Of a stretch of 64,000 bases of DNA, positions 5,427 to 26,463 are shown piece after piece (within the stretch, counting starts at the first letter, position 1; each line of letters opens with the position of its first letter). The position numbers and the translations under genes are program-made. Source of the DNA: a virus. The DNA lies in the IMG/VR virus record IMGVR_UViG_3300045988_120991, positions 101,979-165,978 of that record. The stretch is one strand, 5' to 3'. The notes under the pieces were generated by a model. It did not search any database, had not been told where the DNA came from, and was given only the letters and a program-made list of their open reading frames with translations.

Positions 5427-6302
5427 TTAATGTGCTGCAAGGTCTGCTTCGTGAAGCAAATCCACAGAATTTTTAAGATATGCTGGAAGATTTTTATAAC
5501 ACTTTTCATTTAGAAATGGTGCCATATGAGTGCTTACAAGCCAAGCAACATCTATTCTGATTTCATCTGCAACAAGACCATATATCATATATGCTCCAAC
5601 GCATTGATGCTGATAGAAGTGTGCAGTATCGCTCGGTTCACCTTTTGCATTAACGAATGCTTTGACATATGGTTTACCAACATCGTGAAATGATGCTGCA
5701 AGTGCCATAATGTTATCACACATATCGTTATTTACAATATACTTATATGCCGACTCACAATGATTGTAAATATCTAAAGTATGATGTGGGTTATCATGTA
5801 GAATTCGCATGGCCTCTGTAGAATCATCTATGTATTTTTGCATATCAAATCCATCTGGAAAAATGACTCTAATTTTATCAATGCCTTCATCATAATAAGG
5901 AGCTTGAAAACGCTTAAGCATTCTGTCAATAACTTCTTTACCAACAGTACGTTCTCTTGCGGCATCACGTTCAATGCAAGTTTCAATAGGTGCCCAAATA
6001 ATATGGCATTCAATTTGTGCAAACCTTGGGCACTTTGTAATGATGCTAGCTCTATCTTTTCTTGTGATATTTGTAGCATCATAGATGACATCAAAACCAT
6101 TATTCAATAACATAATTGCTCTATCCTGCATCAATGCAAATACATCTGAAGGATTTCCCTGTATATTTTCATCTCCATATAGTTCTTTTCTGATAGCATC
6201 AGAAGACAGATGATATGTATAGCTATTTTTCATTTTTTCTGCATAAGTGGTTTTCCCAGAACCAGGAATTCCACAAAGAAGTATTAGTACAGGTCTAGTC
6301 AT
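5427..6302 (-). CDS. bifunctional P-loop polynucleotide-kinase-like / HD phosphohydrolase protein
   Basis: N-terminal LLCGIPGSGKTTYA (Walker A) and DATNITRKDR. The C-terminal half has H..HD..H spacing (HHTLDIYNH, FHDVGKP, HFYQHQ, STHMAPF). Confidence 0.75.
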   Translation of the reverse strand: MTRPVLILLCGIPGSGKTTYAEKMKNSYTYHLSSDAIRKELYGDENIQGNPSDVFALMQDRAIMLLNNGFDVIYDATNITRKDRASIITKCPRFAQIECHIIWAPIETCIERDAARERTVGKEVIDRMLKRFQAPYYDEGIDKIRVIFPDGFDMQKYIDDSTEAMRILHDNPHHTLDIYNHCESAYKYIVNNDMCDNIMALAASFHDVGKPYVKAFVNAKGEPSDTAHFYQHQCVGAYMIYGLVADEIRIDVAWLVSTHMAPFLNEKCYKNLPAYLKNSVDLLHEADLAAH

Positions 6303-8941: not shown

Positions 8942-9718
8942 TTATAGTTCATCGTCTTCTTCTGCAAGCTTCTTCTTAATAGCTTTAATTGCAACTTGTA
9001 CATCTGGACGAGTAATGTTCTCCTCCATCCAGACCACATAATCGTCACCAGATTTGAATAGGTCAATCAGCTTCTCGCCCTTATGCTTACCAAATGTTAG
9101 CACATACTCTTCTGGCTTAGATTCTACTCTAGGAGTTTCAATGTTCTCAAAATCCATAGTAAGAGTTTTGCGAGATGCAAGGTAGTCTGCAAGATGTACT
9201 AGCTCTTGATATGTGTCTTCTGGTTTCGGCAAACATTCTCCGGTTTTTCTATCCACATTCCATTGGCCCATATGCGATTCAATACAATGAGCAATTAGTT
9301 CAATCTCATCGTGATTTAGATACTTGCCATCATAACTACGAATAACTGCTGCCATTTGTAGAGGGTGGTCGAATTTAGTATACTTACTTCTTTCATAATC
9401 TGATTGGGACCCACTCTTACGGCCATCATGAATCAGTCCTGCCACACGTAGCAAGTCTCTTTCTCTACTAGGAATTATTTTGTTGTATTGTTCAAGTTCA
9501 AGAAAGAAATTTAGGAATCTTACAACTGCAATCTGATGACACATCAATCCAAGTTCTCCAAGTGAATAGGCCGGATGGTACTTTCCAGTAGACGATGCTC
9601 CAACATGCCATATATATTCTGGAAGGTTGTCTAATAACACAATTGCAAAATCTTTAATATCATCATTTTCAAATGTATTTAGTACTGGTTGTACTATATT
9701 TAGTCTTTCAGGCGTCAT
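8942..9718 (-). CDS. HD-domain phosphohydrolase with C-terminal DUF3820-like tail
   Basis: 258 aa with KYHPAYS...CHQ...LIHDGRK...HCIESH (H..HD..H). The C-terminal FGKHKGEKLIDL...YVVWM motif is seen in phage/ExoX-like tails. Confidence 0.7.
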   Translation of the reverse strand: MTPERLNIVQPVLNTFENDDIKDFAIVLLDNLPEYIWHVGASSTGKYHPAYSLGELGLMCHQIAVVRFLNFFLELEQYNKIIPSRERDLLRVAGLIHDGRKSGSQSDYERSKYTKFDHPLQMAAVIRSYDGKYLNHDEIELIAHCIESHMGQWNVDRKTGECLPKPEDTYQELVHLADYLASRKTLTMDFENIETPRVESKPEEYVLTFGKHKGEKLIDLFKSGDDYVVWMEENITRPDVQVAIKAIKKKLAEEDDEL

Positions 9719-14077: not shown

Positions 14078-14153
14078 TGGAGCACGTGACGAGGCTTGAA
14101 CTCGCAACAGCCAGATTGGAAATCTGGAACTCTACCAATTGAGCTACACGTGC
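14078..14153 (-). tRNA. tRNA-Gly(UCC)
   Basis: Hand-folded cloverleaf: GCACGTG/CACGTGC acceptor, loop TTTCCAA, T-loop TTCAAGC, CCA encoded. Confidence 0.85.
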
Positions 14154-14158
14154 ATTTG

Positions 14159-14235
14159 TGGTACACCTTGAAGGACTCAAACCTTCGACCTTCTGATCCG
14201 TAGTCAGACGTTCTATTCAACTGAACTAAAGGTGC
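14159..14235 (-). tRNA. tRNA-Arg(ACG)
   Basis: Cloverleaf with TCTGA-CTACGGA-TCAGA anticodon arm, T-loop TTTGAGT, CCA encoded. Confidence 0.85.
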
Positions 14236-14240
14236 ATATA

Positions 14241-14315
14241 TGGTGCCCGTGGAGAGATTCGAACTCTCGACTCACGGCTTAAAAGGCCGTTACTCTACCA
14301 CTGAGTTACACGAGC
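14241..14315 (-). tRNA. tRNA-Lys(UUU)
   Basis: ACGGC-CTTTTAA-GCCGT anticodon arm, GAGAG-TTCGAAT-CTCTC T arm, CCA encoded. Confidence 0.9.
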
Positions 14316-14318
14316 ATA

Positions 14319-14395
14319 TGGTCGGAGTGCAGGGGCTTGAACCCTGGGCCTCTAGATCCCAAATCTAGCGCTCTACCAAACTGAGCTACACCCCG
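14319..14395 (-). tRNA. tRNA-Pro(UGG)
   Basis: CTAGA-TTTGGGA-TCTAG anticodon arm, CAGGG-TTCAAGC-CCCTG T arm, CCA encoded. Confidence 0.9.
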
Positions 14396-14400
14396 AAATG

Positions 14401-14477
14401 TGGCACCCCGTGTTGGACTCAAACCAACGACACATGGCTTAGAAGGCCATTGCTCTGTTCAACTGAGCTAACGGGGC
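14401..14477 (-). tRNA. tRNA-Arg(UCU)
   Basis: ATGGC-CTTCTAA-GCCAT anticodon arm, GTTGG-TTTGAGT-CCAAC T arm, CCA encoded. Confidence 0.9.
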
Positions 14478-14482
14478 ATATA

Positions 14483-14577
14483 TGGCGCCGAGGGTGGGAT
14501 TCGAACCCACGGGCCGAATATAAATCGGCACACAAGATTTCAAGTCTAGGCGCTTATGACCACTTGCGCACCTCGGC
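14483..14577 (-). tRNA. tRNA-Ser(UGA), class II
   Basis: Loop CTTGAAA, long variable arm GCCGA...TCGGC, GTGGG-TTCGAAT-CCCAC T arm, CCA encoded. One mismatch in the anticodon stem. Confidence 0.8.
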
Positions 14578-14690
14578 ATATTAACTTTGTAATCCCAAAC
14601 TCCTCCACACAGATTACTGGGCACCCCTTACCTCGAATGCTAGTTAGTAGCAACAAACGTTTGTGCCGTTTCCACAAATAAAGATACACC

Positions 14691-14885
14691 TCACTGCGTA
14701 TTAACCTCTGTATATTCAGTACTAGATAAGGTAATCATTCTTTCGCATCCGTCCTGTGGACAAAAAATATTTGCAACCCCAAGATTATTTATTCCGTCAG
14801 ACGGATTAAATGCAAATTCACAACCACAATAAGGGCAGATTGCCTTATAGGTCTTAACTTTGCCTCCCTTGATAATATACTTCAT
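14691..14885 (-). CDS. small zinc-ribbon protein embedded in the tRNA array
   Basis: 64 aa with CPYCGC...CPQDGC. GAGGTG RBS. Confidence 0.5.
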   Translation of the reverse strand: MKYIIKGGKVKTYKAICPYCGCEFAFNPSDGINNLGVANIFCPQDGCERMITLSSTEYTEVNTQ

Positions 14886-14896
14886 AATAACACCTC

Positions 14897-15016
14897 TTAA
14901 TTAAACTTGTTCAACTGCCGCTTAACTTTACGGATAAGGCCCTCGTTCATAGTCTCGCCTCGTGCCAAAAGCTTTGCTAGACGATTTTCATAATGTTCCT
15001 TAGTGCGAAAGTTCAT
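14897..15016 (-). CDS. small basic helical protein (39 aa) embedded in the tRNA array
   Basis: Hand-translated MNFRTKEHYENRLAKLLARGETMNEGLIRKVKRQLNKFN. Strong AGGAGG upstream. Confidence 0.35.
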   Translation of the reverse strand: MNFRTKEHYENRLAKLLARGETMNEGLIRKVKRQLNKFN

Positions 15017-15042
15017 AATATGTACCTCCTAAAATTTTTGTA

Positions 15043-15165
15043 TGGCAGGGGTAGTAGGGTTCGAACCTACGATGCGGGAGTCTGGTCAAGGTAGTTGGTA
15101 CTGCCCCAACTAAATTCACTTGAATACCTTGAAAGTCCCGTGCCTTACCACTTGGCTATACCCCT
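15043..15165 (-). tRNA. tRNA-Gln-like gene interrupted by a 49-nt insertion in the anticodon loop (UUG if CTTT+GAC are joined; UUC is the alternative)
   Basis: AGGGGTA/TACCCCT acceptor, GCC-AAGTGGTAA-GGC D arm, CGGGA...TCCCG anticodon stem enclosing 56 nt, GTAGG-TTCGAAC-CCTAC T arm, G73, CCA. Insertion at 15083-15131. Confidence 0.65.
15094..15110 (-). repeat. conserved insertion hairpin, copy 1 (GTTGG-GGCAGTA-CCAAC)
   Basis: The same 5-bp stem and 7-nt GGCAGNA loop recur in the insertions at 16662-16678 and 17532-17548. Confidence 0.7.
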
Positions 15166-15168
15166 ATA

Positions 15169-15243
15169 TGGTGGATCTGACGTGACTCGAACACGCAACT
15201 TCTTCCTTGCAAGGGAAGCTTTCTCCCATTGAAATACAGACCC
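15169..15243 (-). tRNA. tRNA-Cys(GCA)
   Basis: CTTCC-CTTGCAA-GGAAG anticodon arm, GCGTG-TTCGAGT-CACGT T arm, CCA encoded. Confidence 0.85.
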
Positions 15244-15405
15244 AGATTTTATGAGATAGCTACACTATGTATACCTAATGTAGCTATTAGGTTTTCTAAC
15301 TCCTCACCTCAAACCATTTTTATCTGTCTCTCCTCTTAGCCAATCAGATTTGAGTGACTTGAACGGACCGCCGTCCTCACATTGATAAAATAGTAAAATC
15401 AACAA
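15244..15405 (-). other. 162-nt non-coding spacer with strong hairpin inside the tRNA array
   Basis: Minus strand contains ATAGCTACA-N14-TGTAGCTAT (9-bp stem) and GGTTT...AAACC. I found no tRNA fold and no ORF. Confidence 0.3.
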
Positions 15406-15496
15406 TGGCGCGATAGGAAGGCTTCGAACCTTCGCACGGCTTTCACCGCCTAGCAGATTAGCAATCTACCCTCTTCAACCACTTGAGTACTACCGC
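15406..15496 (-). tRNA. tRNA-Ser(GCU), class II
   Basis: GTAGA-TTGCTAA-TCTGC anticodon arm, long variable arm GGCGGTGAAAGCCGT, CCA encoded. Confidence 0.85.
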
Positions 15497-15499
15497 ATA

Positions 15500-15703
15500 T
15501 TAATCTAATGTTCTTCCAGTTGCTAATTCAAAAATTAAATTATCAACACAGGGAATGTGCATTGCCTCTATCTCATATTGAGTACGATGTTCAATGTCAT
15601 TAATATAGATAGGACAATCTTTACATTCTACATTTTCACAAAAACGAACAGCTTTTTCTACTATTTTAGAATTCGCAAATTTTATATATTCTTCCCAACG
15701 CAT
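15500..15703 (-). CDS. small Cys-containing protein embedded in the tRNA array
   Basis: Start moved to MRWEEYIKF, with GGAGG 5 nt upstream. 67 aa. Confidence 0.5.
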   Translation of the reverse strand: MRWEEYIKFANSKIVEKAVRFCENVECKDCPIYINDIEHRTQYEIEAMHIPCVDNLIFELATGRTLD

Positions 15704-15723
15704 AAAATCCTCCATAAAACGAG

Positions 15724-15752
15724 CAGTTTATACAGTGATACTCAGCACTATC
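15724..15752 (-). repeat. 29-nt direct repeat, copy A (contains hairpin ATAGTG-N8-CACTGT)
   Basis: 25 of 29 nt identical to 16117-16145. Both copies sit just downstream (minus sense) of a tRNA 3' end. Confidence 0.6.
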
Positions 15753-15775
15753 CCACGGTCCCAATCGAGCTTTTC

Positions 15776-15850
15776 TGGAGCTGATGGAGAATTTCGAAAT
15801 CTCGACCTAGTGATTACAAATCACTCGCTCTGCCTCTGAGCTACACCAGC
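15776..15850 (-). tRNA. tRNA-Thr(UGU)
   Basis: AGTGA-TTTGTAA-TCACT anticodon arm, CCA encoded. One T-stem mismatch. Confidence 0.8.
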
Positions 15851-15956
15851 AGATCTCCTCGTCTTTCCGAGGTGTCAATCGCACTTTTACATTAATAATC
15901 TTAAATTATTCTTTAATAGGAAGATGACGCCAATCTTGTGTGATTACCTTTTATGT

Positions 15957-16025
15957 GAGGTCTTAATTGGAATCGAACCAACACCTGCCCCACCACGGGG
16001 CCGATCTACCATTGAACTATAAGAC
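15957..16025 (-). tRNA. atypical tRNA-like gene with a shortened (15-nt) anticodon arm; identity undetermined
   Basis: GGTCTTA/TAAGACC acceptor and GTTGG-TTCGATT-CCAAT T arm. The anticodon region is GCCCC-GTGGT-GGGGC (5-nt loop, or 4-bp stem with loop CGTGGTG). No CCA encoded. Confidence 0.4.
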
Positions 16026-16027
16026 CT

Positions 16028-16105
16028 ATGGTGACGCTACCGGGGATCGAACCCGGACACTCCACGGTGAAAGCGTGGTAACTCTACCAATTCGTCCATA
16101 GCGCC
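16028..16105 (-). tRNA. tRNA-Glu(UUC)
   Basis: CCACG-CTTTCAC-CGTGG anticodon arm, CCGGG-TTCGATC-CCCGG T arm, CCA encoded. Confidence 0.8.
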
Positions 16106-16116
16106 ATATCTTTGGA

Positions 16117-16145
16117 CAGTTTATACAGTGATGTCCAGCACTGTC
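16117..16145 (-). repeat. 29-nt direct repeat, copy B (hairpin ACAGTG-N8-CACTGT)
   Basis: See 15724-15752. Confidence 0.6.
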
Positions 16146-16156
16146 ACTTTTGGGAG

Positions 16157-16241
16157 TGGTAGCGGTGGTGGGCTACGATCCCACACGTCATAAGACATTG
16201 GTTTTTGAGACCAACCTGTCTGCCTGTTCCAGCACACCGCC
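16157..16241 (-). tRNA. tRNA-Leu(CAA), class II, atypical T-loop
   Basis: TTGGT-CTCAAAA-ACCAA anticodon arm, long variable arm. The T arm is GTGGG-ATCGTAG-CCCAC, with A where T54 normally sits. CCA encoded. Confidence 0.75.
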
Positions 16242-16448
16242 ATATTAAGCACAACCTACATAGAGCTAGCCTCGCTCACACTTGCTTTCCCGAACACTTC
16301 CCACCCTCGGTTATGCTTTGTTATTGTTTATCCTATTTTCACAATAACATATGCCTCGTTCTCTTCTCGTTACTATGGGTTAGTAACTTAGTAGCTTTTC
16401 TCTTGTGGATAGCACTTATCAATACACCGAGAACCCCAATAGGCGGCA
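16242..16448 (-). ncRNA. 207-nt structured non-coding spacer (candidate ncRNA)
   Basis: No credible ORF. Minus strand contains CTCGGT...ACCGAG enclosing about 110 nt, GTTACTA-ACCCA-TAGTAAC and GTTATTGT-N13-ACAATAAC hairpins. Confidence 0.3.
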
Positions 16449-16524
16449 TGGTTGCGAAGTTCTGGAATCGAACCAGATTCTGATAGCTTATGAGACTACC
16501 TGAGATTCCTACCTCCCACTCGCA
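16449..16524 (-). tRNA. tRNA with CAU anticodon (Met, or Ile2 if lysidine-modified)
   Basis: GTAGT-CTCATAA-GCTAT anticodon arm, TCTGG-TTCGATT-CCAGA T arm, CCA encoded. The acceptor has one mismatch. Confidence 0.7.
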
Positions 16525-16608
16525 TTATCTAGCAGACTACAATGCCGTCTGCTAGGGCATTAGAAAGAGGTGATGCCTATAACCAAGGCTCTGAACTTGT
16601 CATTCAGA

Positions 16609-16758
16609 TGGTCCCCCACCGGTGGATTGAACACCGAACCTCCCGATTATTTGTCACTACAGTAAGTCCTGCCCTTACATTACTGATTATCCTTCAGTGG
16701 TGTTGCTTTTACACTATGTAGTGAAGTCGGGTGCTCTAGCCAGTTGAGCTAGCAGGGG
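16609..16758 (-). tRNA. class I tRNA interrupted by an approx. 73-nt insertion in the anticodon loop (Ile-UAU-like if CTT+ATAA are joined; Arg-UCU or UCA readings also possible)
   Basis: CCCCTGC/GTGGGGG acceptor, GCTC-AACTGGCTA-GAGC D arm, CCCGA...TCGGG stem enclosing 80 nt, AGGTT variable loop, CGGTG-TTCAATC-CACCG T arm, A73, CCA. Confidence 0.6.
16662..16678 (-). repeat. conserved insertion hairpin, copy 2 (GTAAG-GGCAGGA-CTTAC)
   Basis: Shares stem ends and the GGCAGNA loop with copies 1 and 3. Confidence 0.7.
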
Positions 16759-17056
16759 ACATATAATCCGGCTTTTACGGTACGCCCAATAAGATGGACA
16801 CGCTTGAATTTCACAATTGCCATCAAAGTGCCTGATGACTAACACCCAATATGAAGCCTTGATATCATTGCTTCTAAGTCGTTATTGGGAACAACAGATG
16901 GTAATGATAGCAAGCGAAGCCGCGCATGACTCCATTTCACAGTGCTTCATCAACTACTTTTGGCATTTCTAATTATTATCGGTGCAGGTAGCTAATCCTG
17001 TAACGGCTTATCCTCATTGATTATCTCCTATGAAATTTGCACTACTTACTATCATT
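16759..17056 (-). ncRNA. 298-nt non-coding spacer (candidate structured RNA)
   Basis: No ORF above about 22 codons and no tRNA fold found by eye. Several 5-6-bp hairpins (e.g. CATCA-N7-TGATG). Confidence 0.25.
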
Positions 17057-17141
17057 TGGTGGGCCAGGGTGGTGCCGACCCACCTACTCCCGAAGGAAAC
17101 GGATTTACAGTCCGCCGCAGTTGCCGATTTGCTACTGACCC
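17057..17141 (-). tRNA. tRNA-Tyr(GUA), class II, atypical T-loop
   Basis: GCGGA-CTGTAAA-TCCGT anticodon arm, variable arm TTCCTTCGGGAGTA. The T arm is GGTGG-GTCGGCA-CCACC (G54/G58). CCA encoded. Confidence 0.75.
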
Positions 17142-17468
17142 ATATAGCTATACTTTTTAACTTGGGCAAGAAGTATAGTGAAACTTGCCAGACGATCAAA
17201 CCTTCATCCACATGGGAGCCACACGCAGTTCGTCCGTAGTATGTGGTTTTAATGTTTGAGTTGGTTCGCTACACCAACTCCGACTGACTTGCAATCGCAC
17301 TATTTTCTCTACAATTGGCCTTTGCACTACATTCGCACCCTAGTGCATTAACCTTCCTATATAGTGAACTTCCCTTTCATTTTCTGCTTCGAGAACCAAT
17401 CGCTTGTTCTCTACTCCAAGACTTTGGACGGGAGATGGGGCGGTAGTTTAATGACTTGCCAAGGTCGA
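17142..17468 (-). ncRNA. 327-nt structured non-coding element closed by a terminal helix (candidate large ncRNA)
   Basis: Minus-strand 5' CTTGGCAAG can pair with 3' CTTGCCCAAG. Internal hairpins are GAGAAC-N9-GTTCTC, GCACTA-N11-TAGTGC and GAGTTGG-N9-CCAACTC. No ORF. Confidence 0.35.
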
Positions 17469-17601
17469 TGGTGCGGGTAGCGAGACTTGAACTCGCACGG
17501 ATATTTCACCGAGGGATTTTTGGTGAGTATTGTAGGTGCTGCCCCTACCAAAGCACTGGCTATACCCAAGTCCCTTGTGTCTGCCATTCCACCATACCCG
17601 C
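17469..17601 (-). tRNA. tRNA-Leu (class II) interrupted by a 47-nt insertion in the anticodon loop (UAA if CTT+AAAA are joined)
   Basis: GCGGGTA/TACCCGC acceptor, Leu-type D arm GTG-GAATGGCAGA-CAC, AGGGA...TCCCT stem enclosing 54 nt, long variable arm, GCGAG-TTCAAGT-CTCGC T arm, A73, CCA. Confidence 0.65.
17532..17548 (-). repeat. conserved insertion hairpin, copy 3 (GTAGG-GGCAGCA-CCTAC)
   Basis: Shares stem ends and the GGCAGNA loop with copies 1 and 2. Confidence 0.7.
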
Positions 17602-17649
17602 ATATCACAGGGCAGCTTTAAGGTGATGCCCAGCACCATACTTAACTCC

Positions 17650-19203
17650 TTAAGAGTTCTTCAATGCGGCTTCCACCGCATCATATCTATCACTCATAAG
17701 CGTCTCAACGAGGCACTCATAAGGATTGGTCTTACCACTCATAACCATCTTGCAGACATTAGTGGAGAATCCACTAACAAGAGCAACACCAAGGTCATTC
17801 TCCTTTATAGGAATAGTTCCAGTGCGAGAATTTACATTCCAGAAGACTAGTCTAGGCATCTGATACCCAGCATCCTCGAAACGCTTCTTGATTACCTTAA
17901 AAAGTTTTGCATTAGGTCTATTAAGACCATATCTAGCGGAACCGTCACAAGTTGCACAAGAGTCAAACTCCATATCTGAAATAATCAGTACGTTCTTAGG
18001 CATATCCTCTTGCTTCATATGACCATTCACCGCAGTAGTAAGAATCAAATCAAACACCTTTTCAATGTTTGTATTTGAACACTCGTCATGACCATATGCA
18101 ACACGTAACTTATCTCTCAGAGAATCGCACTGACTAAAATCAACCAACTGAGGTCTGCTAGAGAAAGTAATGTATTTATCCTTAAAGTCTCCAGAAGAAT
18201 GTTCTGCAAAGTAAATCGCAAGTGCATTTGCAACTTCAAGTGCAGTAACACGGCTACTTCCACCAACGTTGCAACACATAGAACCAGAGCCATCTGCAAC
18301 TACAATGGTGTTTCCACATTCATTTACTGTGTTAGGCAAAGCTTTCCAAAGAGATTCAAGAGTTGCATCGTATTTGCCGATACCGCCGTACCATCCAGTT
18401 GCACTAGAATACTTATGCACAATGTCGTGAGGGAACAAAGTTCCAGCATTAATCTTAGTTTCGCCCTTTTCAAGCTTACTCAGATACTCTCTGCGACGCT
18501 CCTCATCATTACGAAGGAAAGCTCCGTTATAAATGAGATTTGCACGAGAAGGAACTGTTTCGTACTTAATGTCTCCCCATTTCTTTGCAGACATCTTGCC
18601 CTCTACAATATCAATGTAAGAACGCAGAGAAGAAAGTGTCTTACGATACTCACGCTCAGTCATACCAAGATTCTTGCAAATGTATCTTGCATCCATCTTA
18701 GTTTTTGCAGAAGAAGCATTCACAGAAGGAAGCCACTTGGCAAGAAGAGATACGGGCTTATTATCAGCCATATTTGCAATATCATCAGTGAGCTGCTTTT
18801 TGATGATGTCAAAAATAATACCATCTACGTCTGTACCAAACAGACACCACAGGTCATCATAACGACCATACTCACTCACCAGAGGAGCAAGATGCTTAAC
18901 AATATCAACGTCATCCTTTGCCATATTCTTAATAATCGCTCTGAACAAACGTCTTTCACCAAGACCACCACGAACATCTCTGGCGAAGAACAGCCAACGT
19001 AGAGCCATCATTTTATCTTCAAAATAAGCCTTAGTAAACTTATTATAGATATTCTCCTCACTCATACCACGCATAGAAGAAACTGCAAAGTTTAGGTCAA
19101 CCAGTTCCTTACCAGAGGTACGATACCCAAGAGCGCCATTCTCAGTTACTGAATAGTTGAAATCCTCGTTCAGAGTATTCTTTACTGCATTCATAAAAGA
19201 CAT
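17650..19203 (-). CDS. Ro60/TROVE-like vWA protein (DUF2828-type architecture)
   Basis: Start moved to MSFMNAVKN, with GGAGG upstream. N-terminal VTENGALGYRTSGKELVDLNF. C-terminal vWA domain with MIDAS VADGSGSM, and a tail FWNVNSRTGTIPI...VSGFS that parallels the Ro60 C-terminus. Confidence 0.65.
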   Translation of the reverse strand: MSFMNAVKNTLNEDFNYSVTENGALGYRTSGKELVDLNFAVSSMRGMSEENIYNKFTKAYFEDKMMALRWLFFARDVRGGLGERRLFRAIIKNMAKDDVDIVKHLAPLVSEYGRYDDLWCLFGTDVDGIIFDIIKKQLTDDIANMADNKPVSLLAKWLPSVNASSAKTKMDARYICKNLGMTEREYRKTLSSLRSYIDIVEGKMSAKKWGDIKYETVPSRANLIYNGAFLRNDEERRREYLSKLEKGETKINAGTLFPHDIVHKYSSATGWYGGIGKYDATLESLWKALPNTVNECGNTIVVADGSGSMCCNVGGSSRVTALEVANALAIYFAEHSSGDFKDKYITFSSRPQLVDFSQCDSLRDKLRVAYGHDECSNTNIEKVFDLILTTAVNGHMKQEDMPKNVLIISDMEFDSCATCDGSARYGLNRPNAKLFKVIKKRFEDAGYQMPRLVFWNVNSRTGTIPIKENDLGVALVSGFSTNVCKMVMSGKTNPYECLVETLMSDRYDAVEAALKNS

Positions 19204-19239
19204 TTTCTTTCCTCCATTTTTTTGATTTATTTCTAAATC

Positions 19240-19442
19240 CCAAGACACATTATTATGTACAATCTCCACATTAAAAATTTGCTGTTAGTGTCTTTGGAGT
19301 TTATTCAACGAGACGCCAAAATAAAACCATTAGTAAAAATATCATTTTCATCTTTTTAAATTGCTGTAAGCGTCTCTATGTAAGGCAAGGCACCATCAAT
19401 ATAAATCCATATCATATTATGTAAAGTTGCTGTTAGTGCCTT
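19240..19442 (-). repeat. three tandem imperfect hairpin units, each carrying a CTAACAGCAA-N-TTT box, in the leader of the Ro-like gene
   Basis: Minus-strand stems are AAGGCAC/GTGCCTT, GAGACGC/GCGTCTC and CCAAAGACAC/GTGTCTTGG. Each is followed on its 5' arm by (C)T(A/T)ACAGCAA-N-TTT. A fourth box lies inside the tRNA-Asn insertion. Confidence 0.6.
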
Positions 19443-19448
19443 TTTAAA

Positions 19449-19567
19449 GTCTCCTGACAGGACTTGAACCTGCGACCTCTGGTTTAACAGACCAATTAGA
19501 AACTTGCTGTTTAAGGCTTTTACAAGTCTCGTTATTAAGCGCTCTATCCGACTGAGCTACAGGAGAC
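19449..19567 (-). tRNA. tRNA-Asn(GUU)-like gene with a 44-nt insertion at the top of the anticodon stem; encoded G-1 opposite C73; no CCA
   Basis: Removing 19495-19538 gives TCTCCTG-TA-GCTC-AGTCGGATA-GAGC-G-CTGGT-CTGTTAA-ACCAG-AGGTC-GCAGG-TTCAAGT-CCTGT-CAGGAGA-C, a canonical cloverleaf. Confidence 0.6.
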
Positions 19568-19604
19568 ATATTTATGAGCAGTTTAACGAGGTGCTCGGCT
19601 CACT

Positions 19605-19649
19605 TTAATTTTGTACTGTGATTATACCACAGATTACTTATTTTGTCAA
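19605..19649 (-). promoter_or_regulatory. sigma-70-type promoter plus conserved leader, driving the tRNA-Asn-like / Ro-like unit
   Basis: Minus strand reads TTGACA-N17-TATAAT-c-ACAGTACAAAATTAA, with a TGTGG extended -10 context. Confidence 0.7.
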
Positions 19650-19763
19650 GTACTTTTTTACTTTTTATTCCAGAGAAGCCATCCACAAGCAACTCCGAAC
19701 AAGAAACATACAATTTCCTTCATCTTTACTTCTTCCTTATTATACCATATTCGGCATCATTTG

Positions 19764-20114
19764 TCAAGCATTTTCTCGATTTTTTCTTGTGCAATTTACT
19801 CGATTGCAGAACTCAAACATTGCTGCATTAAGATCCTCTGCAAACTCATCACACTTGGTATCCAGTGCTGCATAGTACCGATCCAGAAGCTTCGCCTTTG
19901 CCATCTTCATACCAATAGCAGGATCATACTCATCATCAGGATGACACACGACAACCGCACGATAAGAACTACTCATCAGGTACTTACTAGGATCGAAGCA
20001 CAGAGATTTGGTCTGTCCCATAATCTTTGCAATCTTATGGATAGCATCATACTTCGTGTTCTCAAGAACCGCAATGGTCTTGTTCTGCTCCGGCACATGT
20101 ACAAACTTAATCAT
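19764..20114 (-). CDS. hypothetical protein
   Basis: ORF track, 116 aa, behind two tandem consensus promoters. Confidence 0.6.
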   Translation of the reverse strand: MIKFVHVPEQNKTIAVLENTKYDAIHKIAKIMGQTKSLCFDPSKYLMSSSYRAVVVCHPDDEYDPAIGMKMAKAKLLDRYYAALDTKCDEFAEDLNAAMFEFCNRVNCTRKNRENA

Positions 20115-20134: not shown

Positions 20135-20179
20135 TTAATTTTGTATTGTGATTATAACATGCTTTCTTGAACTTGTCAA
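20135..20179 (-). promoter_or_regulatory. sigma-70-type promoter plus conserved leader
   Basis: Minus strand reads TTGACA-N17-TATAAT-c-ACAATACAAAATTAA. Confidence 0.65.
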
Positions 20180-20228: not shown

Positions 20229-20257
20229 ATTATAGCGCATTAATTTTGTTTTGTCAA
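20229..20257 (-). promoter_or_regulatory. second, upstream sigma-70-type promoter
   Basis: Minus strand reads TTGACA-N17-TATAAT. The -35 overlaps the stop codon of the preceding gene. Confidence 0.55.
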
Positions 20258-21402
20258 GTATCTTTTTTAAATAATTTTCTAGTTTCTTCATAAGACAGGT
20301 ACTTAATATTAATGCCCGTCAAATTCAGCAGTTTTTCATTTTTAAACTCGTTAACATGAGTTACTGCAAGAGATACCTCATAGGCAATATCCCCAATGTC
20401 TTCCTTAATTCTTTGCATAAGCTCACCAACATCAAGATGCCCATACCGAATGGACCCCTGATACTGGTTTGTAATATTGGTCTTGTCATCAATGTTAATG
20501 TTAATCTCCGACTTATCACATTCACATTCAAAGTCACCAGCACCATGCTTCGTCATATATGTTCTAGTAACATAGCACACTTCAACGTTTGCATTAGGTA
20601 AATACTTTTCAATGATTATATGAGGATTTGCAATGCCAGTATTGCTAGGAGTCGTATTATCATAATACTGAACATGACGCTGATCCAACAGCAATCCTTG
20701 CCCATTTTCAAATACGACATTATCAAACTTTTGCAAAATCCTACTATAATCAAATACTACATGAGAATGCATAAACTGCGCATCGTCAATAAAGTTATAA
20801 ATCAAATTGTCGGATGCCAAAATATCTTCCCATTCCTGCAAAACTTCAGGACTAGCCTTTAGCAGCCTCTTAGACGTATATTCATCCCTGACACGCTTAA
20901 GAAATGCGACCTGCTCGTCCTTAGTCATATTATAGAACTGCTGGAAAGACGGGCTTGTAGTATTCCTATATCTAAGAACAGTTTCCCAAATACCCATACC
21001 ACAAGAGCCATACCGATTTTTGCCACGACTATCCTCAAGGATTTGATTTGTAATCATATCATATGGAGTAGACCATCTGCAATTCCAATGACTATAAACA
21101 CGAGGTGCATAGCCTAATGCCTTCAATTCCTCGTACTCTTTTCTAAAAGTCATAGGGTTTAGAATATACTCTTCCCCAAAATAAGTATCTGCTCCCGCAA
21201 AGGTTCCTGAACCAAAATGGTGGAACACATGTCTAATGCCATCTGGAGTAACTACAGTATGTCCTCTTTGTGCGCCGCCATTGCATAGAGCAACGATACA
21301 AGATTCATTCCGCTTACTTGCTTCGGCACAAAAGTAATCGGTCATCAGACCTTTTCCCTCGTCGCCAAAGTTGCTACCAATTACTACCTTAACATTAGAC
21401 AT
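20254..21402 (-). CDS. adenylosuccinate synthetase family protein (short form; PurA/PurZ-like)
   Basis: Start moved to MSNVKVVIGSNFGDEGKGLMTDYF (AdSS P-loop GDEGKG). Also NGGAQRGHTV (compare GGHNAGHT), FENGQGLLLD and TRTYMTKHGAGDF (compare TRVGxGPF). Confidence 0.7.
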   Translation of the reverse strand: MSNVKVVIGSNFGDEGKGLMTDYFCAEASKRNESCIVALCNGGAQRGHTVVTPDGIRHVFHHFGSGTFAGADTYFGEEYILNPMTFRKEYEELKALGYAPRVYSHWNCRWSTPYDMITNQILEDSRGKNRYGSCGMGIWETVLRYRNTTSPSFQQFYNMTKDEQVAFLKRVRDEYTSKRLLKASPEVLQEWEDILASDNLIYNFIDDAQFMHSHVVFDYSRILQKFDNVVFENGQGLLLDQRHVQYYDNTTPSNTGIANPHIIIEKYLPNANVEVCYVTRTYMTKHGAGDFECECDKSEININIDDKTNITNQYQGSIRYGHLDVGELMQRIKEDIGDIAYEVSLAVTHVNEFKNEKLLNLTGINIKYLSYEETRKLFKKDT

Positions 21403-21416
21403 GTGTTTATCCTTTC

Positions 21417-22271
21417 TTACCAAGAAATACCTTCACTAGATGTTGCTACATTGCCACCAGAAAACGCATTGGTGACAATATCAATGATGTCATCTGCAAT
21501 CTTATCAATAGACGTATCCTTCAGATGGTTCTCGTCCAGAAGCAGCCCAAAAGTCCTATGAACGGCCTCATGATAACGACCATAACCATGCTTAACATAC
21601 AGATGATAAATGTCAAACTTCTCAGACGCATTAGCGTAAAGCTGTGCCGTTTCAACATCGCTCTGTAGATTATCACCAGTTACTGCGGATAGAGCCTTCT
21701 TCGGCAGATATGGATTCATAGGCTCGTCACCCATAGTGATAATGACACCCTTCTGTCCACGATTCCAGCAATCTAGCTTCGTGTGATTAAGACCGAAATA
21801 CCATGCGGCGCTATAAGACTCATAATCATTGCCTCCACCACCGCCCTCAAAATAAATCTTATCAAGCTGTTCTGCGATGCGGATATCAGACTCAAACTGT
21901 GATGCCTGAATAGGAGCGCAATCGTAAGCAAGATCCCCAATGCCCATAACCATGAACTCTACGTCTGCGATATTCTCGTATAGCTTAGTCATTACTACAT
22001 TGATCTGCTTTGCAACTTCCATAGCCGCCTTGCCCATGCTACCAGTTACATCGAGTGCCAGAATAACAGGCTTGGTATTAGGATGTTCCACAGAGTCAAC
22101 ACACTCACGCATTACATTCTTAGGATTAAGGTCTGCTACTAGCATTTTAGATTTAAAATTGTCCTGCACATTAGAGGACATTCCAGTGACTACACCATCC
22201 ATTGATACGCTGTACCCCTTGGTAGTCGCATAAGTGGTAAAAGCATTTTTAGTCCAACTGCCACCGCCCAT
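21417..22271 (-). CDS. von Willebrand factor A (vWA) domain protein
   Basis: 284 aa. MIDAS-like ILALDVTGSMG, followed by MVMGIGD and IITMGDE motifs. Confidence 0.7.
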   Translation of the reverse strand: MGGGSWTKNAFTTYATTKGYSVSMDGVVTGMSSNVQDNFKSKMLVADLNPKNVMRECVDSVEHPNTKPVILALDVTGSMGKAAMEVAKQINVVMTKLYENIADVEFMVMGIGDLAYDCAPIQASQFESDIRIAEQLDKIYFEGGGGGNDYESYSAAWYFGLNHTKLDCWNRGQKGVIITMGDEPMNPYLPKKALSAVTGDNLQSDVETAQLYANASEKFDIYHLYVKHGYGRYHEAVHRTFGLLLDENHLKDTSIDKIADDIIDIVTNAFSGGNVATSSEGISW

Positions 22272-23196: not shown

Positions 23197-26100
23197 TTAT
23201 ATAATTATATTTACAAGATAATTCGTCAACCAAGGTTCTTGCTCTGGGAGTTTAACCCATTGACCATTCTCGTCCTTACGGCTCTTATTTCTCATTTCAG
23301 AATGGAACTGTAATATACAATCTTTATTAAAAGGATTCTTCTCATAAGCCTTTTTCTGTACCTTATAGACTACAGTTTGCCCATCCCAAAGTTGATAAAC
23401 CGTAATACGAGGACTCCAATTTGTATTCAAATCCATAACATAACCAATATTCTTTTTATCTGGAATTACCAATGAACAGAATCCAAAAAGGTCACATTGC
23501 CATTTTATTTTAGACTGAATAGGAACTTCTACTTGTGGAATCATAGAACATAATTCTTTAAGTAGTCCATCTGGATCGGTAATTCTATATTGTTTCTCTG
23601 TAGCCGTTGTGTATTTGTCAAGAAGTTCTTGTGGAAGTCTACATTTGTCCTTCTTCAAAATTTTCTTTCCAGCAAACTGGTCATATACTTCTACAAGGTG
23701 CAAAAGAGTTCCCGAAGGTCCAAAGTCAGAAAAATAGTCAATCTTAATCAATGTATCAATCTTTGCAGAGTTTAAACTAGGAATCTTTTTCATAGCAGTA
23801 AGTAACTCAATGAAACTATCAAACTTCTGTTTCTGTGAAAGTTCATACAAATCATCCGCACAAGCTTGGCTTAGTCCTTTAATTGACAATAGAGACGGGT
23901 TAATTACATGCTTCTCCTTGTCTGCAACAAACTTTCTGTTATCAACACCAAATTTATACTCACCCTCTTTAATGCCAAAAGCTACTTGCATCTCCTGTTT
24001 AAGAGCTTGAACTTTATCCTTCTTGCCCTTATCAGAAAACACTTGTAGAAGGACTTCATAAAATTCATATTGATAATGAGCCTTTAACCATGCACAATAC
24101 AGACTATCAAGAGCCATACAATAAGCATGAGCACTATTGAAGCCATATCCGCAGGAATCATCAATAATCTGCCATACCTTTGCACTCATTTCTTCCGCTT
24201 CTGCATCTGGAATATGGTCATCCTCCATAATACGCTTCTTGAATCCTTCAATGAATCTAGATTTCAAAGGACGAACCTTTTCTGGATGCTTCTTTGCAAT
24301 AGCTTTAATAATTCCATAGCATTCATCAAGGGGGAATCCAGCATAGTTTAATGTATTCATACTCTGCTCTTGATAAAGAATATAAGAATATGGGAATTGT
24401 GGTGTTTGAAGAATCTTATCAAAAGCCTTAATTCCATACTCAAAATGCTCACGTGATTCAAACTTAGAATACATAGACTTAAAAGCAGGACGAATTGCAG
24501 CAATCCAAGCGGCTAACTCTGAAATATTCTGAGGCTTATACTTTTTGAGCTTTCTCATTGCAGATTCTTTCTCACACTGATTAACTCCAATAGTATATCC
24601 ATTGGCATAAATATCCCATACTTTCTTGTCACCATCAACAAGGTCACTAATCTCGCTAGCCGTATGTACTGGAATACCAATACGCTTATAAATCATATCA
24701 ATGAGCAAAACAACATCTACTTTAAGCAAGTCATTTTTAAGGAACTTGTACTTTTCTGCAATTGCTCCATCAATAACTGTAGTAATATATTCACGCTTTG
24801 TGCTTTCACTCTTGCACTTGATAAGACCAATTTCTTCTCTGATGCTACCCTGGTACAATAAGTAGGCACAAGGGGCCTTGTTTTTGTGGTCAATTACTCC
24901 CCAATATTTCTTGCTCTTATCAATATATGGTTTATACTGCTCATCAATAAAGTCATAAATATTAATATCATCCTTGTCGTCATCGTCGGCATATTTTACT
25001 GCTTCTTCATACTTATCAATCTGCTTAGAAATTTCATTTGCAATATCATAATCTAAGTTAGCTGCTCTTGCGTACAACTTGAATGCTGACTTCTTCTTTA
25101 GTGTACCAAAAGCAACCATAGGATATGCATGATCTTCTCCAAGAATTTCTTTCTGAGCTTCTGCAAAAGGTTCTACCGTGCCAAGGTTCATATCCAAATC
25201 TGGTAATGACTTGGTTTCCAAAATTCTCGTCTTACTAATAAAACGCTCTGGATACAGTTTAATTGGAGATGTAAATCTATCAACCTTAGAAAATCCACAT
25301 AGGGTATTGGTAAAATAACCAACGGCACTACCTCTGCCAGTAGTTGTGATAAGCCCACCCTTTTCAATGCCACGCTTAATAATAGCATAATCCATCAAAG
25401 GATAGTCCACCATACCAGTTTCTTTATATACTGATACTTCTTGTTTAACTCCATCAAAGTATTCTTTATATTTATCCTTTGGAACATGTTTCACATAGTC
25501 TTTAAAAAGCCTAGAAATAAGCTTACTATATATTTTATTTCGTTCCTCCTGTGTTTTATCTGGATACAATGTAGGTAACTTAATGTCTGTAGTAAATACT
25601 GGCACATTGTCATAATCATCAAAAGTTAGCAGAATATCAGTATTGTCCATAGCTTTTTGCACAGTTTCTGCATCAAACACACCTTGCTCTACAAATCTTT
25701 GACGAACAGTATCATCGTCTGGATAATCCATATACCAACCAACTTCATTGTCATCAAACTGAATATTTCGCCCAGCTAGGATATCATCTCTTTCTACCGA
25801 TTGCTCTGGATAAATATAATGGCTATCAAGTCCAACTATCATTGGAATGTTATACTTCTCAGACAATTCTTTAATATGCTTGTTTAGAATAATTTGTCTT
25901 GAAGTATTGTGATTTTGAATTTCTAACATGAAGTTGTCTTTAAAATAATCATGTAGATGTTTTACAATTTCGTCACTGTCTTCATATTTCCAAAAGGCAA
26001 TACATGCAGTTGTGATAAAAACATCATCAGCAGGAAGTGAAAAAATTAAATCAAGGTCAATTCTTGGTTTATAATAATATCCTGTTTCGTTAGCATCAGA

Positions 26101-26463
26101 TAGAATACGATTTATGGCACGTCTTCCGTTTTCGTTCTTAGCAAGAATAATTATATGATTGTTGGATTTATCTTTATTGGTACGAATTATTCCATCTTTA
26201 TTCTTTTTAACTTCACCAGTTTCTTTATCGTATTCTTCATATTCTTTCTGGCGATCTTTAACCCAATATGCTTCCGTACCAAAAATGAACTTTAAATTAT
26301 ATTCTTTTGCCAACTCAAATGCTTTATGATAATAGCCTTGCCATCCATGTTCAACAGAGCTAATAACCTTATGCCCAAGTTCTACTGCTCTTTTTGCATA
26401 TTCCTCTGGCATTGCTGCACTATCACCTTCGCTATAGCTTGTATGACGATGGTAATTTTGCAT
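23197..26463 (-). CDS. dnaE: DNA polymerase III alpha subunit (DnaE-type, N-terminal PHP domain)
   Basis: 1088 aa. N-terminal HRHTSYSEGDS...SVEHG PHP motifs. Size and overall layout are typical of C-family replicases. Confidence 0.85.
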   Translation of the reverse strand: MQNYHRHTSYSEGDSAAMPEEYAKRAVELGHKVISSVEHGWQGYYHKAFELAKEYNLKFIFGTEAYWVKDRQKEYEEYDKETGEVKKNKDGIIRTNKDKSNNHIIILAKNENGRRAINRILSDANETGYYYKPRIDLDLIFSLPADDVFITTACIAFWKYEDSDEIVKHLHDYFKDNFMLEIQNHNTSRQIILNKHIKELSEKYNIPMIVGLDSHYIYPEQSVERDDILAGRNIQFDDNEVGWYMDYPDDDTVRQRFVEQGVFDAETVQKAMDNTDILLTFDDYDNVPVFTTDIKLPTLYPDKTQEERNKIYSKLISRLFKDYVKHVPKDKYKEYFDGVKQEVSVYKETGMVDYPLMDYAIIKRGIEKGGLITTTGRGSAVGYFTNTLCGFSKVDRFTSPIKLYPERFISKTRILETKSLPDLDMNLGTVEPFAEAQKEILGEDHAYPMVAFGTLKKKSAFKLYARAANLDYDIANEISKQIDKYEEAVKYADDDDKDDINIYDFIDEQYKPYIDKSKKYWGVIDHKNKAPCAYLLYQGSIREEIGLIKCKSESTKREYITTVIDGAIAEKYKFLKNDLLKVDVVLLIDMIYKRIGIPVHTASEISDLVDGDKKVWDIYANGYTIGVNQCEKESAMRKLKKYKPQNISELAAWIAAIRPAFKSMYSKFESREHFEYGIKAFDKILQTPQFPYSYILYQEQSMNTLNYAGFPLDECYGIIKAIAKKHPEKVRPLKSRFIEGFKKRIMEDDHIPDAEAEEMSAKVWQIIDDSCGYGFNSAHAYCMALDSLYCAWLKAHYQYEFYEVLLQVFSDKGKKDKVQALKQEMQVAFGIKEGEYKFGVDNRKFVADKEKHVINPSLLSIKGLSQACADDLYELSQKQKFDSFIELLTAMKKIPSLNSAKIDTLIKIDYFSDFGPSGTLLHLVEVYDQFAGKKILKKDKCRLPQELLDKYTTATEKQYRITDPDGLLKELCSMIPQVEVPIQSKIKWQCDLFGFCSLVIPDKKNIGYVMDLNTNWSPRITVYQLWDGQTVVYKVQKKAYEKNPFNKDCILQFHSEMRNKSRKDENGQWVKLPEQEPWLTNYLVNIII

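Follow-up and report, generated by a model that had tools for sequence, protein, structure and literature searches.

Examining a 64,000-nucleotide (nt) stretch of viral DNA (IMG/VR record IMGVR_UViG_3300045988_120991, positions 101,979 to 165,978; hereafter the window), we characterized a minus-strand gene (17650..19203) whose product has a predicted fold resembling that of the Ro60 proteins, together with a structured RNA module, built around the heptamer ACAGCAA, that accompanies homologs of this gene across phage lineages. The conservation of the metal-binding site of the protein, the co-occurrence of gene and RNA on the same strand, the covariation of the RNA helix and the operon-like layout of the locus make it, in our view, reasonably likely that this phage Ro60 relative and its adjacent RNAs constitute a Ro60/Y-RNA-like particle, of which we infer the RNA binding, the formation and the cellular target. 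A Ro-like label already existed for the protein, and its putative RNA partner appears to be the new part.

A large protein family with a Ro60-like predicted fold

The open reading frame (ORF) spans 17650..19269 on the minus strand and would encode 539 residues from a GTG start. The true start is likely the ATG at 19203, with GGAGG on its 5' side, which yields a 517-residue product beginning MSFMNAVK, because homologs of 505–524 residues align with this shorter form end to end, from its first residue. An original prediction, made from the letters of the window, had described a Ro60/TROVE-like protein with a vWA domain encoded inside a phage tRNA array, and the strings that it quoted (SVTENGALGYRTSGKELVDLNF, VVADGSGSM and RLVFWNVNSRTGTIPIKENDLGVALVSGFS) are all found in this frame. 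The coding sequence matches the Pfam models DUF2828 (PF11443; E 2e-33, 116.1 bits against a cut-off of 29) and DUF7788 (PF25043; E 9e-46, 156.3 bits against a cut-off of 27.1), both of which are also matched by 88/88 members of a set of mutually diverse homologs (alignment A2) that served as the basis of the family profile and of the final AlphaFold2 (AF2) model. The generic VWA_2 model is weak on the window protein (E 0.08), and PHROG 850, labelled 'RNA-binding protein', matches it at E 1e-139.

More than 8000 database proteins match the window protein, the profile search recovering 8087 representatives of 50%-identity clusters at E <= 0.001. An identical protein was found on a 166-kb human-gut metagenome contig, with relatives on contigs of 165–178 kb, and a megablast search of the region against isolated phages returned no close relative at the DNA level. 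Using tblastn, full-length homologs of 26–41% identity were detected in 710 isolated phage records, including Felix-O1-like, Listeria P100-like, Staphylococcus, Campylobacter, Enterococcus, Bacillus and Vibrio phages as well as mycobacteriophages, under annotations as varied as 'Ro-like RNA binding protein', 'RNA-binding protein', 'vWFA protein' and 'DUF2828'. The literature mentioning DUF2828 yielded no functional account of the family. In BFVD, phage and giant-virus DUF2828 proteins match the model of the window protein at template modelling (TM) scores of 0.8–0.89; relatives of the model at TM 0.6–0.89 are found in eukaryotic giant viruses (Pithovirus, Marseillevirus, Cafeteria roenbergensis virus and Mimiviridae), and the DUF2828 family is therefore not restricted to phages.

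The protein comprises an all-helical N-terminal domain (residues 1–297; 18313..19203, minus strand), helical in the secondary structure of the model and contained in the full-length Foldseek alignments to Ro60, and a C-terminal vWA domain (residues 298–517; 17653..18312, minus strand), supported by conservation, hhalign and profile matches to the Protein Data Bank (PDB). In the model, the N-terminal domain corresponds in position to the HEAT-repeat region of Ro60; across the 88 homologs, it carries the conserved motifs TENG, RDxRxGxGERR, EYGRxDD and KWxPS. The vWA domain holds a complete metal ion-dependent adhesion site (MIDAS), in which D304, S306 and S308 (18280–18294) are completed by T378 and D410, all five residues being unchanged in 88/88 diverse homologs. 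With vWA structures matching the C-terminal half and an unchanged DxSxS...T...D signature, this half belongs to the vWA/MIDAS superfamily.

The AF2 model built from A2 (predicted local distance difference test, pLDDT, 93.3; predicted TM score, pTM, 0.93) superseded an earlier one built from a shallow alignment (pLDDT 72.8). Compared with the PDB using Foldseek, its best five matches (9kop, 1yvr, 2i91_B, 9nen and 9l5y_B) are every one a Ro60/TROVE structure, namely the Trove/Ro60 protein of Thermus phage phiLo (9kop, 9l5y), Xenopus Ro60 in its free and RNA-bound states, and human Ro60. These five alignments span the full length of the protein (523–582 columns; E 2.8e-7 to 2e-5; TM 0.47–0.58), and the PDB matches ranked below them cover the vWA domain only (query-normalised TM score, TMq, ~0.2). 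A viral TROVE protein of BFVD matches the model at TMq 0.59. Structure searches with a model of this quality therefore do not return only a generic vWA protein, the result that the original prediction had named as speaking against it, and the Ro60 architecture is predicted to be shared at the fold level.

Searches of PDB sequences with the single sequence or with a profile of close homologs did not find Ro60. The 88-homolog profile, run against 177,635 distinct PDB sequences, returned two matches, human (9nen) and Xenopus (1yvp) Ro60, both marginal (E ~0.02) and located over the MIDAS region. Ro60 and Rsr homologs were then gathered with a human Ro60 query differing from 9nen_A by one residue, and hhalign aligned the vWA halves of the family and of Ro60 over 177 columns (Prob 88.6%, E 2.6e-6). 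The alignment pairs PRLVFWNVNSRTGTIPIKENDLGVALVSGFS with human Ro60, and the parallel with the Ro60 C-terminus that had been noticed in the window is thus real. The Pfam model vWA_Ro60 (PF25045) is weakly matched by 19/88 members, and by sequence this half is a Ro60-type vWA domain with a MIDAS. The N-terminal half is not placeable in the TROVE family by the same means: hhalign of the N-terminal halves against a 21-sequence TROVE alignment gave nothing, and Pfam TROVE (PF05731) does not match the window protein at E <= 1. A sub-threshold, collinear HMMER alignment (domain score -2.6) sets RDxRxGxGER beside KDLKEGMKCGMWGR and EYGRW..DDL beside KYKQRNGWSHKDLL.

A structured RNA module accompanies the gene

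The ACAGCAA heptamer was first spotted in insert-bearing tRNA-like genes and in the 245 nt that separate position 19446 from the start codon of the window gene. Its distribution was followed in 80 IMG/VR loci holding homologs of the gene (1.52 Mb; hereafter the viral loci) and in a further 80 loci from bacterial assemblies and metagenome-assembled genomes (MAGs). Across the viral loci, 489 copies lie on the gene strand against 117 on the other. The gene-strand copies number 130, 70 and 47 in the three successive 500-nt bins that begin just upstream of the gene and 53 in the first 500 nt downstream, whereas the other strand holds 0–2 copies in these bins and none in the nearest upstream one. 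Between -2 and +1 kb, at least one gene-strand copy is present in 76/80 loci and at least three in 59/80, the density falling from 1.37 per kb close to the gene to 0.12 per kb beyond 3 kb; a single locus has up to 8 tandem copies.

The module associates a 7-bp helix (H1, GYGYCUU/AAGRCRC), the single-stranded ACAGCAA directly 3' of the AAGRCRC strand, and an anticodon-arm-like hairpin (consensus wAAGRCRC-WW-ACAGCAA-WUUUa). A perfect complement of the heptamer preceding ACAGCAA was found for 194 of the 288 instances, against 22–46 for displaced control heptamers, and is located at most 40 nt upstream in 37 cases and at most 90 nt downstream in 159. Two forms of the module occur. Form B, the commoner (159/194 paired instances), is a standalone hairpin, typically of 55–75 nt, that reads AAGRCRC-WW-ACAGCAA-(30–60 nt)-GYGYCUUG. 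Form A reads GYGYCUUG-(short loop)-AAGRCRC-WW-ACAGCAA and is embedded in a tRNA-like scaffold. The two forms are circular permutations of one another and share the order H1 3' strand, ACAGCAA, anticodon arm.

Applied to 67 Form B sequences, RNAalifold recovered H1 with compensatory changes at 7/7 pairs. The inner hairpin of Form B has an anticodon-like loop in 53/165 cases, most often CUUUUAA or CUUGAAA, whereas shuffles give 10 such cases (maximum 19). From 18 homologous Form A elements aligned without reference to structure (alignment A5), RNAalifold recovered de novo the acceptor and T stems, H1, and an anticodon arm made of a 3-bp stem and a 7-nt loop. Paired cells amount to 97% in this alignment, against 67% in shuffles and 33–49% with partners slid, and covariation scores 0.855 against 0.233; 0/500 shuffles attain such values. 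The H1-ACAGCAA arm of Form A is inserted between anticodon-stem positions 28 and 29 and leaves a YU-NNN-AA loop intact (GUU, UUU, UGU, GGU). Since the alignment puts the ACAGCAA class in the anticodon stem with the loop intact, we rejected the view that the insert-bearing tRNAs all carry anticodon-loop introns; the ARAGORN anticodon calls aaa, aat, cta and tca are artefacts of a forced intron model. A promoter or terminator role of ACAGCAA was likewise rejected, given its confinement to the vicinity of the gene, the covariation of the flanking heptamer with its partner and the lack of a U-tract after it.

A covariance model built from the 67 Form B sequences (R1) gave 164 matches (E <= 0.01) spread over 70/80 viral loci; every match shares the strand of the gene, and very few lie farther than ~2 kb from it. 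Over the whole window, both strands included, it matches only three elements, at 19240–19296, 19308–19378 and 19385–19444 (E 6e-9 to 2e-7). Among isolates outside the training set, R1 detects three tandem copies directly 3' of the gene in Staphylococcus phage S-CoN_Ph3, four to five copies upstream of the gene in Bacillus phage PJN02 and one copy in Enterococcus phage EA1. It also matches 32/80 of the loci from bacterial assemblies and MAGs (mostly Lachnospiraceae and other Clostridia); among the R1-negative bacterial loci that were read (L108, L127, L135 and L159), Form A is present in three and none is evident in L159. Four ACAGCAA copies lie in or beside the inter-tRNA spacers of Salmonella phage FO1a, and three elements occupy an unannotated gap past gene 55 of Mycobacterium phage Crossroads, one of them followed by the T-arm-like GGTTCGACTCC, in a genome with no tRNA gene within 6 kb of the homolog. 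Listeria phage LP-083-2 and Campylobacter phage F358 hold three and two copies, respectively. The module thus adjoins homologs only 33–36% identical to the window protein, and the tie to tRNA-like RNAs that the original prediction had proposed proves stronger than the window by itself could reveal.

Some of these elements coincide with existing annotations. In S-CoN_Ph3, a 29-codon 'hypothetical protein' (L089, 4513–4602) overlaps the first R1 match (4524–4590, the others being at 4601–4664 and 4673–4735) and is probably the RNA element mis-called as a coding sequence. In LP-083-2, a 'tRNA-OTHER' upstream of the homolog (L086, 1345–1419) may be a candidate Form A-type element.

Searches of Rfam 15, with gathering and E-value thresholds, returned tRNA only and no family corresponding to the module, which was not found in the literature searched either; the ACAGCAA module appears to be new, although absence from these sources is no proof. 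The Rfam YrlA model stays at noise level, its best score of 23.3 bits being far below the gathering score (69) and overlapping ordinary tRNAs; the partly tRNA-embedded RNA family that flanks the gene is a different one.

Layout of the locus and surrounding tRNA array

In order of transcription on the minus strand, the locus presents a promoter, a Form A element, three Form B elements, a ribosome-binding site, the coding sequence and more tRNA genes. The sigma-70 promoter (19621..19649, minus strand; TTGACA, 17-nt spacer, TG, TATAAT) is a 12/12 match with an extended -10, and its position would allow it to drive both the RNA elements and the coding sequence. No terminator-like site was found between this promoter and the coding sequence, and we infer that the RNA elements and the gene are co-transcribed.

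The Form A element (19446..19568, minus strand; Rfam tRNA 42.3 bits with a 57-nt insertion, structure from A5) has acceptor, D and T arms, an anticodon arm with the loop CUGUUAA, and ACAGCAA at 19504–19510. It departs from a true tRNA in that an arm of ~47 nt breaks the 5' strand of the anticodon stem. The three Form B elements follow on the same strand: AAGGCAC-UA-ACAGCAA-(loop)-GUGCCUU at 19385..19444 (R1 42.6 bits, E 2e-7), GAGACGC-UU-ACAGCAA-(loop)-GCGUCUC at 19308..19378 (46.2 bits, E 2.6e-8) and AAGACAC-UA-ACAGCAA-(loop)-GUGUCUU at 19240..19296 (48.9 bits, E 5.6e-9). The last one stops ~35 nt ahead of the start codon, and an element is found at -39 to -114 in many related loci.

The promoter at 19621–19649 is one of three 12/12 sigma-70 promoters with an extended -10 TG that lie within 560 nt (the others at 20151–20179 and 19739–19767, minus strand), preceding a small ORF (19764–20114) and the RNA elements, which points to strong transcription of this region by the host polymerase.

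The position of the gene within a tRNA array, as first described from the window, is confirmed by 14 tRNAs predicted with ARAGORN at 14078–17141 and by three tRNA-like genes with ~50-nt insertions added by Rfam (15046–15165; 17472–17601, 49 nt past the stop codon; 19449–19566, 245 nt ahead of the start codon), every tRNA gene of the window lying on the strand of the gene. The association extends to the viral loci, with a tRNA at most 2 kb from the gene in 53 and at most 500 nt in 45, and with all tRNA calls on the gene strand in 79/80. In the 500 nt next to the gene, tRNAs reach 1.37 per kb and insert-bearing tRNA-like genes 0.73 per kb; at 4–10 kb, the corresponding densities are 0.02–0.03 and 0.002–0.003 per kb. 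Of the distinct insert-bearing calls, 69/85 contain the ACAGCAA module. In Salmonella phage FO1a, the homolog gp42 heads an array of 23 tRNAs.

Of the RNA repair kit that the original prediction had placed around the gene, the components are confirmed, with a Thg1-like gene (963–1796; E 2e-90), a polynucleotide kinase with an HD domain (PNK; 5427–6302) and an RNA ligase (Rnl; 6551–8029; PHROG 968, E 4e-62), but they stand 9.6–16.7 kb away from it. Homologs of these genes occur within 10 kb of the gene in few of the viral loci (Rnl in 17/80, PNK in 9/80 and Thg1 in 6/80), and an RtcB homolog in 0/80; no tight linkage to RNA-repair genes was found. Downstream of its homolog, at 0.6–1.3 kb, Listeria phage LP-083-2 encodes a metal-dependent phosphohydrolase together with an RtcB-like 'tRNA splicing ligase' (L086, 5860–7071), the ligase being 1.3 kb away, in an arrangement reminiscent of the bacterial rsr-yrlBA-rtcBA operon.

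A separate class of interrupted tRNAs and other features of the window

The array holds a second class of interrupted tRNAs, at 17469–17602, 15043–15166 and 16609–16778 (minus strand), whose insertions of 49–75 nt sit in the anticodon loop and resemble a tRNA minihelix. Their two ends form a 5–8-bp stem, a hairpin with a 7-nt GGCAG(N)A loop stands beside the 3' strand, and the 3' tail is ACCA, once ACAA. Excision would leave Leu-UAA, Gln-UUG and Ile-UAU exons, none of which is found among the uninterrupted ARAGORN tRNAs of the window. The representative directly 3' of the coding sequence (17469..17602, minus strand; Rfam 42.5 bits with a 50-nt insertion, ARAGORN intron mode and fold) is a class II tRNA gene, probably Leu-UAA, with a GGCAGCA loop and a 3' ACCA; it is a neighbour of the gene, not an ACAGCAA element. 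These three genes form a class of their own with no specific tie to the Ro60-like gene. Members of this class were also observed at +1052 and +4135 in L006 and at +1263 in L031. The insertions may represent a type of tRNA intron not yet described in bacteria or phages; enzymes that process tRNA ends might excise them, and the phage RNA ligase might then join the exons.

Within 16525–17470 (minus strand), ~0.9 kb contain no convincing ORF and, besides the interrupted tRNA at 16609–16778, a single standard tRNA (Tyr, 17057–17141); the rest of this interval may be the 'long structured RNAs' of the original prediction. The tRNA cluster of a related 173-kb phage contains a drum RNA (Rfam RF02958; 56.5 bits, exceeding the gathering score) ~2 kb upstream of the DUF2828 gene (L001, 7976–8091; L002, 1432–1547); no such RNA was found in the window. 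Two genes upstream of the Ro60-like gene, a second MIDAS-like protein with a DVTGSMG motif is encoded at 21417–22271 (minus strand); it has no Pfam match, matches PHROG 2971 (function not known) and has homologs within 10 kb in 4/80 viral loci. A PurZ-type adenylosuccinate synthetase homolog (20254–21423, minus strand; PHROG 1211, E 2e-62) and an HD-domain protein (8942–9718, minus strand) hint at a Z-genome in which 2-aminoadenine replaces adenine; a PolIII-alpha DnaE is encoded at 23197–26463.

Discussion

In the reading that we favour, a divergent phage-type Ro60 relative, with a helical-repeat N-terminal half and a MIDAS vWA domain, would be made together with small RNAs from one transcript and would bind these adjacent RNAs to form a Ro60/Y-RNA-like particle. 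By analogy with Ro60, for which a helix with an adjacent single strand is the type of ligand bound, H1 and the neighbouring ACAGCAA may act as the protein docking site. The tRNA-like body or the anticodon arm may then act as an effector engaging a host enzyme or a defence factor, the body of Form A being analogous to the tRNA-like domain of bacterial YrlA.

The known Ro60/Rsr-Y RNA systems (Rsr with YrlA/YrlB; Rsr-Yrn1-PNPase, 'RYPER', in D. radiodurans) show the same order of helical repeats followed by a MIDAS vWA domain, provide the best full-length structural matches of the window protein and are related to it at the profile level in their vWA halves. They differ from it in their N-terminal half, which in the window protein is not detectably TROVE by sequence. 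In YrlA, the ends of the RNA form the Ro-binding stem. Unlike YrlA, Form A ends at an acceptor stem and its putative protein-binding arm is loop-closed, the phage signature is H1 plus ACAGCAA with no Rfam YrlA match, and the putative effector part is an anticodon arm whose YU-NNN-AA loop is intact; the circular permutation and the anticodon-stem insertion set the module apart. Bacterial and phage loci of canonical Ro60 carry tRNA-like Y RNAs no more than 4 kb from the gene (PMC4201824). Small structured RNAs, often several and some with a tRNA-like module, stand beside these genes (PMC4201824), as they do here.

The closest solved structure is that of the phiLo Ro60 with Yrl1/Yrl2 (9kop, 9l5y; target-normalised TM score, TMt, 0.58, E 2.8e-7), a phage-encoded protein whose partner RNAs lie just upstream, like the candidate partner RNAs of the window locus. 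It binds two adjacent Y-like RNAs and the host PNPase (PMC12135203), and its Yrl RNAs are recognised by a CGAA motif (PMC12135203). The phiLo protein differs in being a canonical TROVE protein with CGAA-marked RNAs and in its demonstrated PNPase binding. Among Felix-O1-like phages, Bas63 gp130 is reported to resemble Ro60 in structure, to be encoded directly upstream of tRNA genes and to counter the Ppl defence (PMC11482910, preprint). Its ortholog in FO1a is probably gp42, a protein 36% identical to that of the window whose gene is kept in 251 Felix-O1-type records. The authors of the Bas63 study guessed that some annotated tRNAs are Y RNAs (PMC11482910); their preprint gives no RNA motif, and the candidate RNAs of FO1a are the four hairpins between or beside tRNA genes, not tRNA genes. 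The actinobacteriophage 'Ro-like RNA binding protein' (e.g. Crossroads gp55) and PHROG 850 belong to the same family (33–37% full-length identity) and are annotation labels only.

Several observations weigh against a Ro60/Y-RNA-like particle. The Ro60 fold matches are moderate (TM ~0.5, root-mean-square deviation 8–10 A). The N-terminal halves give no hhalign signal against a 54-sequence Ro60/Rsr alignment (E 0.33), and TROVE does not figure in the list of the 25 families that the 88 members match most frequently; the Ro60/TROVE-like character initially attributed to the protein thus holds for its predicted fold and its vWA half, and not for its N-terminal sequence. On the RNA side, 4/80 viral loci lack ACAGCAA near the gene, R1 finds no match in Vibrio phage nt-1 and Fusobacterium phage Fnu1, and the motif has no sequence likeness to known Ro60-binding sites or to Rfam YrlA. 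The covariation of Form B (alignment A4) is partly circular, as its instances were picked by complementarity, a point addressed by the displaced-heptamer controls and by the independent alignment A5. Finally, one copy lies in the probable 5' untranslated region (5'-UTR), which also fits autoregulation or processing.

The latter point invites a reading of the ACAGCAA hairpins as signals acting in cis, either 5'-UTR operators or RNase processing and stability signals, the protein binding its own mRNA or no RNA at all. The copy that ends shortly before the start codon of the window gene, the recurrence of an element at a similar place in many loci, the fact that the elements share the strand of the gene and probably one polycistronic transcript with it, and the way in which those of FO1a fill the inter-tRNA spacers are all consistent with it. 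We nevertheless hold it to be unlikely, considering the tandem arrays of up to 8 copies and the loci of S-CoN_Ph3, FO1a and Crossroads, where copies are solely downstream of the gene; a simple operator would also leave unaccounted for the presence of the module within complete tRNA-like scaffolds with conserved anticodon-type loops.

The scaffolds themselves could be explained if the insert-bearing tRNA-like genes were precursors from which the H1-ACAGCAA arm is excised, with the protein as a maturation or splicing cofactor and the RNA ligase and PNK as resealing enzymes. Once the insertion is looped out, an anticodon stem of the normal 5 bp and a 7-nt loop (e.g. GUU) do remain, ARAGORN finds no other tRNA-Asn in the window, which encodes RNA ligase, PNK and Thg1-like proteins, and a further class of interrupted tRNAs is present in the same array. 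The standalone Form B, however, has no exons to join and makes up most of the paired instances, RNA-ligase homologs are near the gene in a minority of loci, the module is intergenic in Felix-O1-type, mycobacterial and staphylococcal phages, and an endonuclease is not evident, all of which makes such precursors rather improbable. Least credible of all is a generic vWA/MIDAS protein with no RNA role, for instance an assembly or adhesion cofactor, whose likeness to Ro60 and whose neighbourhood would be coincidental or ancestral. That vWA domains are common in phages, that the N-terminal half lacks a TROVE signal in its sequence and that some records read merely 'vWFA protein' would agree with it; the full-length fold matches are specific to Ro60, and the strand-specific, covarying RNA association, enriched ~11-fold to >100-fold, spans phages of Actinobacteria, Proteobacteria and Firmicutes with proteins as little as 33–36% identical to that of the window.

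As to the role of a Ro60/Y-RNA-like particle, the RNA quality control initially suggested is not supported; the sole experimental datum that we found for a probable homolog is the Ppl counter-defence by Bas63 gp130 (PMC11482910). A role in RNA surveillance is possible by analogy, and one in counter-defence is possible from the Bas63 datum. Carried further, and with a low probability in our own estimate, the RNAs might be a new and very widespread class of phage Y-like RNAs displayed by a Ro-like ring as anticodon-arm or tRNA decoys (for example Lys-UUU, Asn-GUU or Ser-UGA loops), which would trap, mislead or tether tRNA-targeting defence nucleases of the host or other tRNA-recognising enzymes; the protein and its RNAs would then form a general counter-defence particle of tRNA-carrying phages.

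DUF2828/DUF7788 proteins form a very large uncharacterised family spread over many isolated phages. If the adjacent RNAs are their ligands, this family would represent a second, phage-centred branch of the Ro60/Y-RNA systems with a simple and searchable RNA signature. Such a branch would account for many of the 'odd tRNAs' and unannotated gaps of phage tRNA clusters, some of which now bear wrong labels as very short ORFs or as tRNAs of unusual anticodon, and would provide a concrete hypothesis for the Ppl counter-defence exerted by the probable homolog in Bas63.

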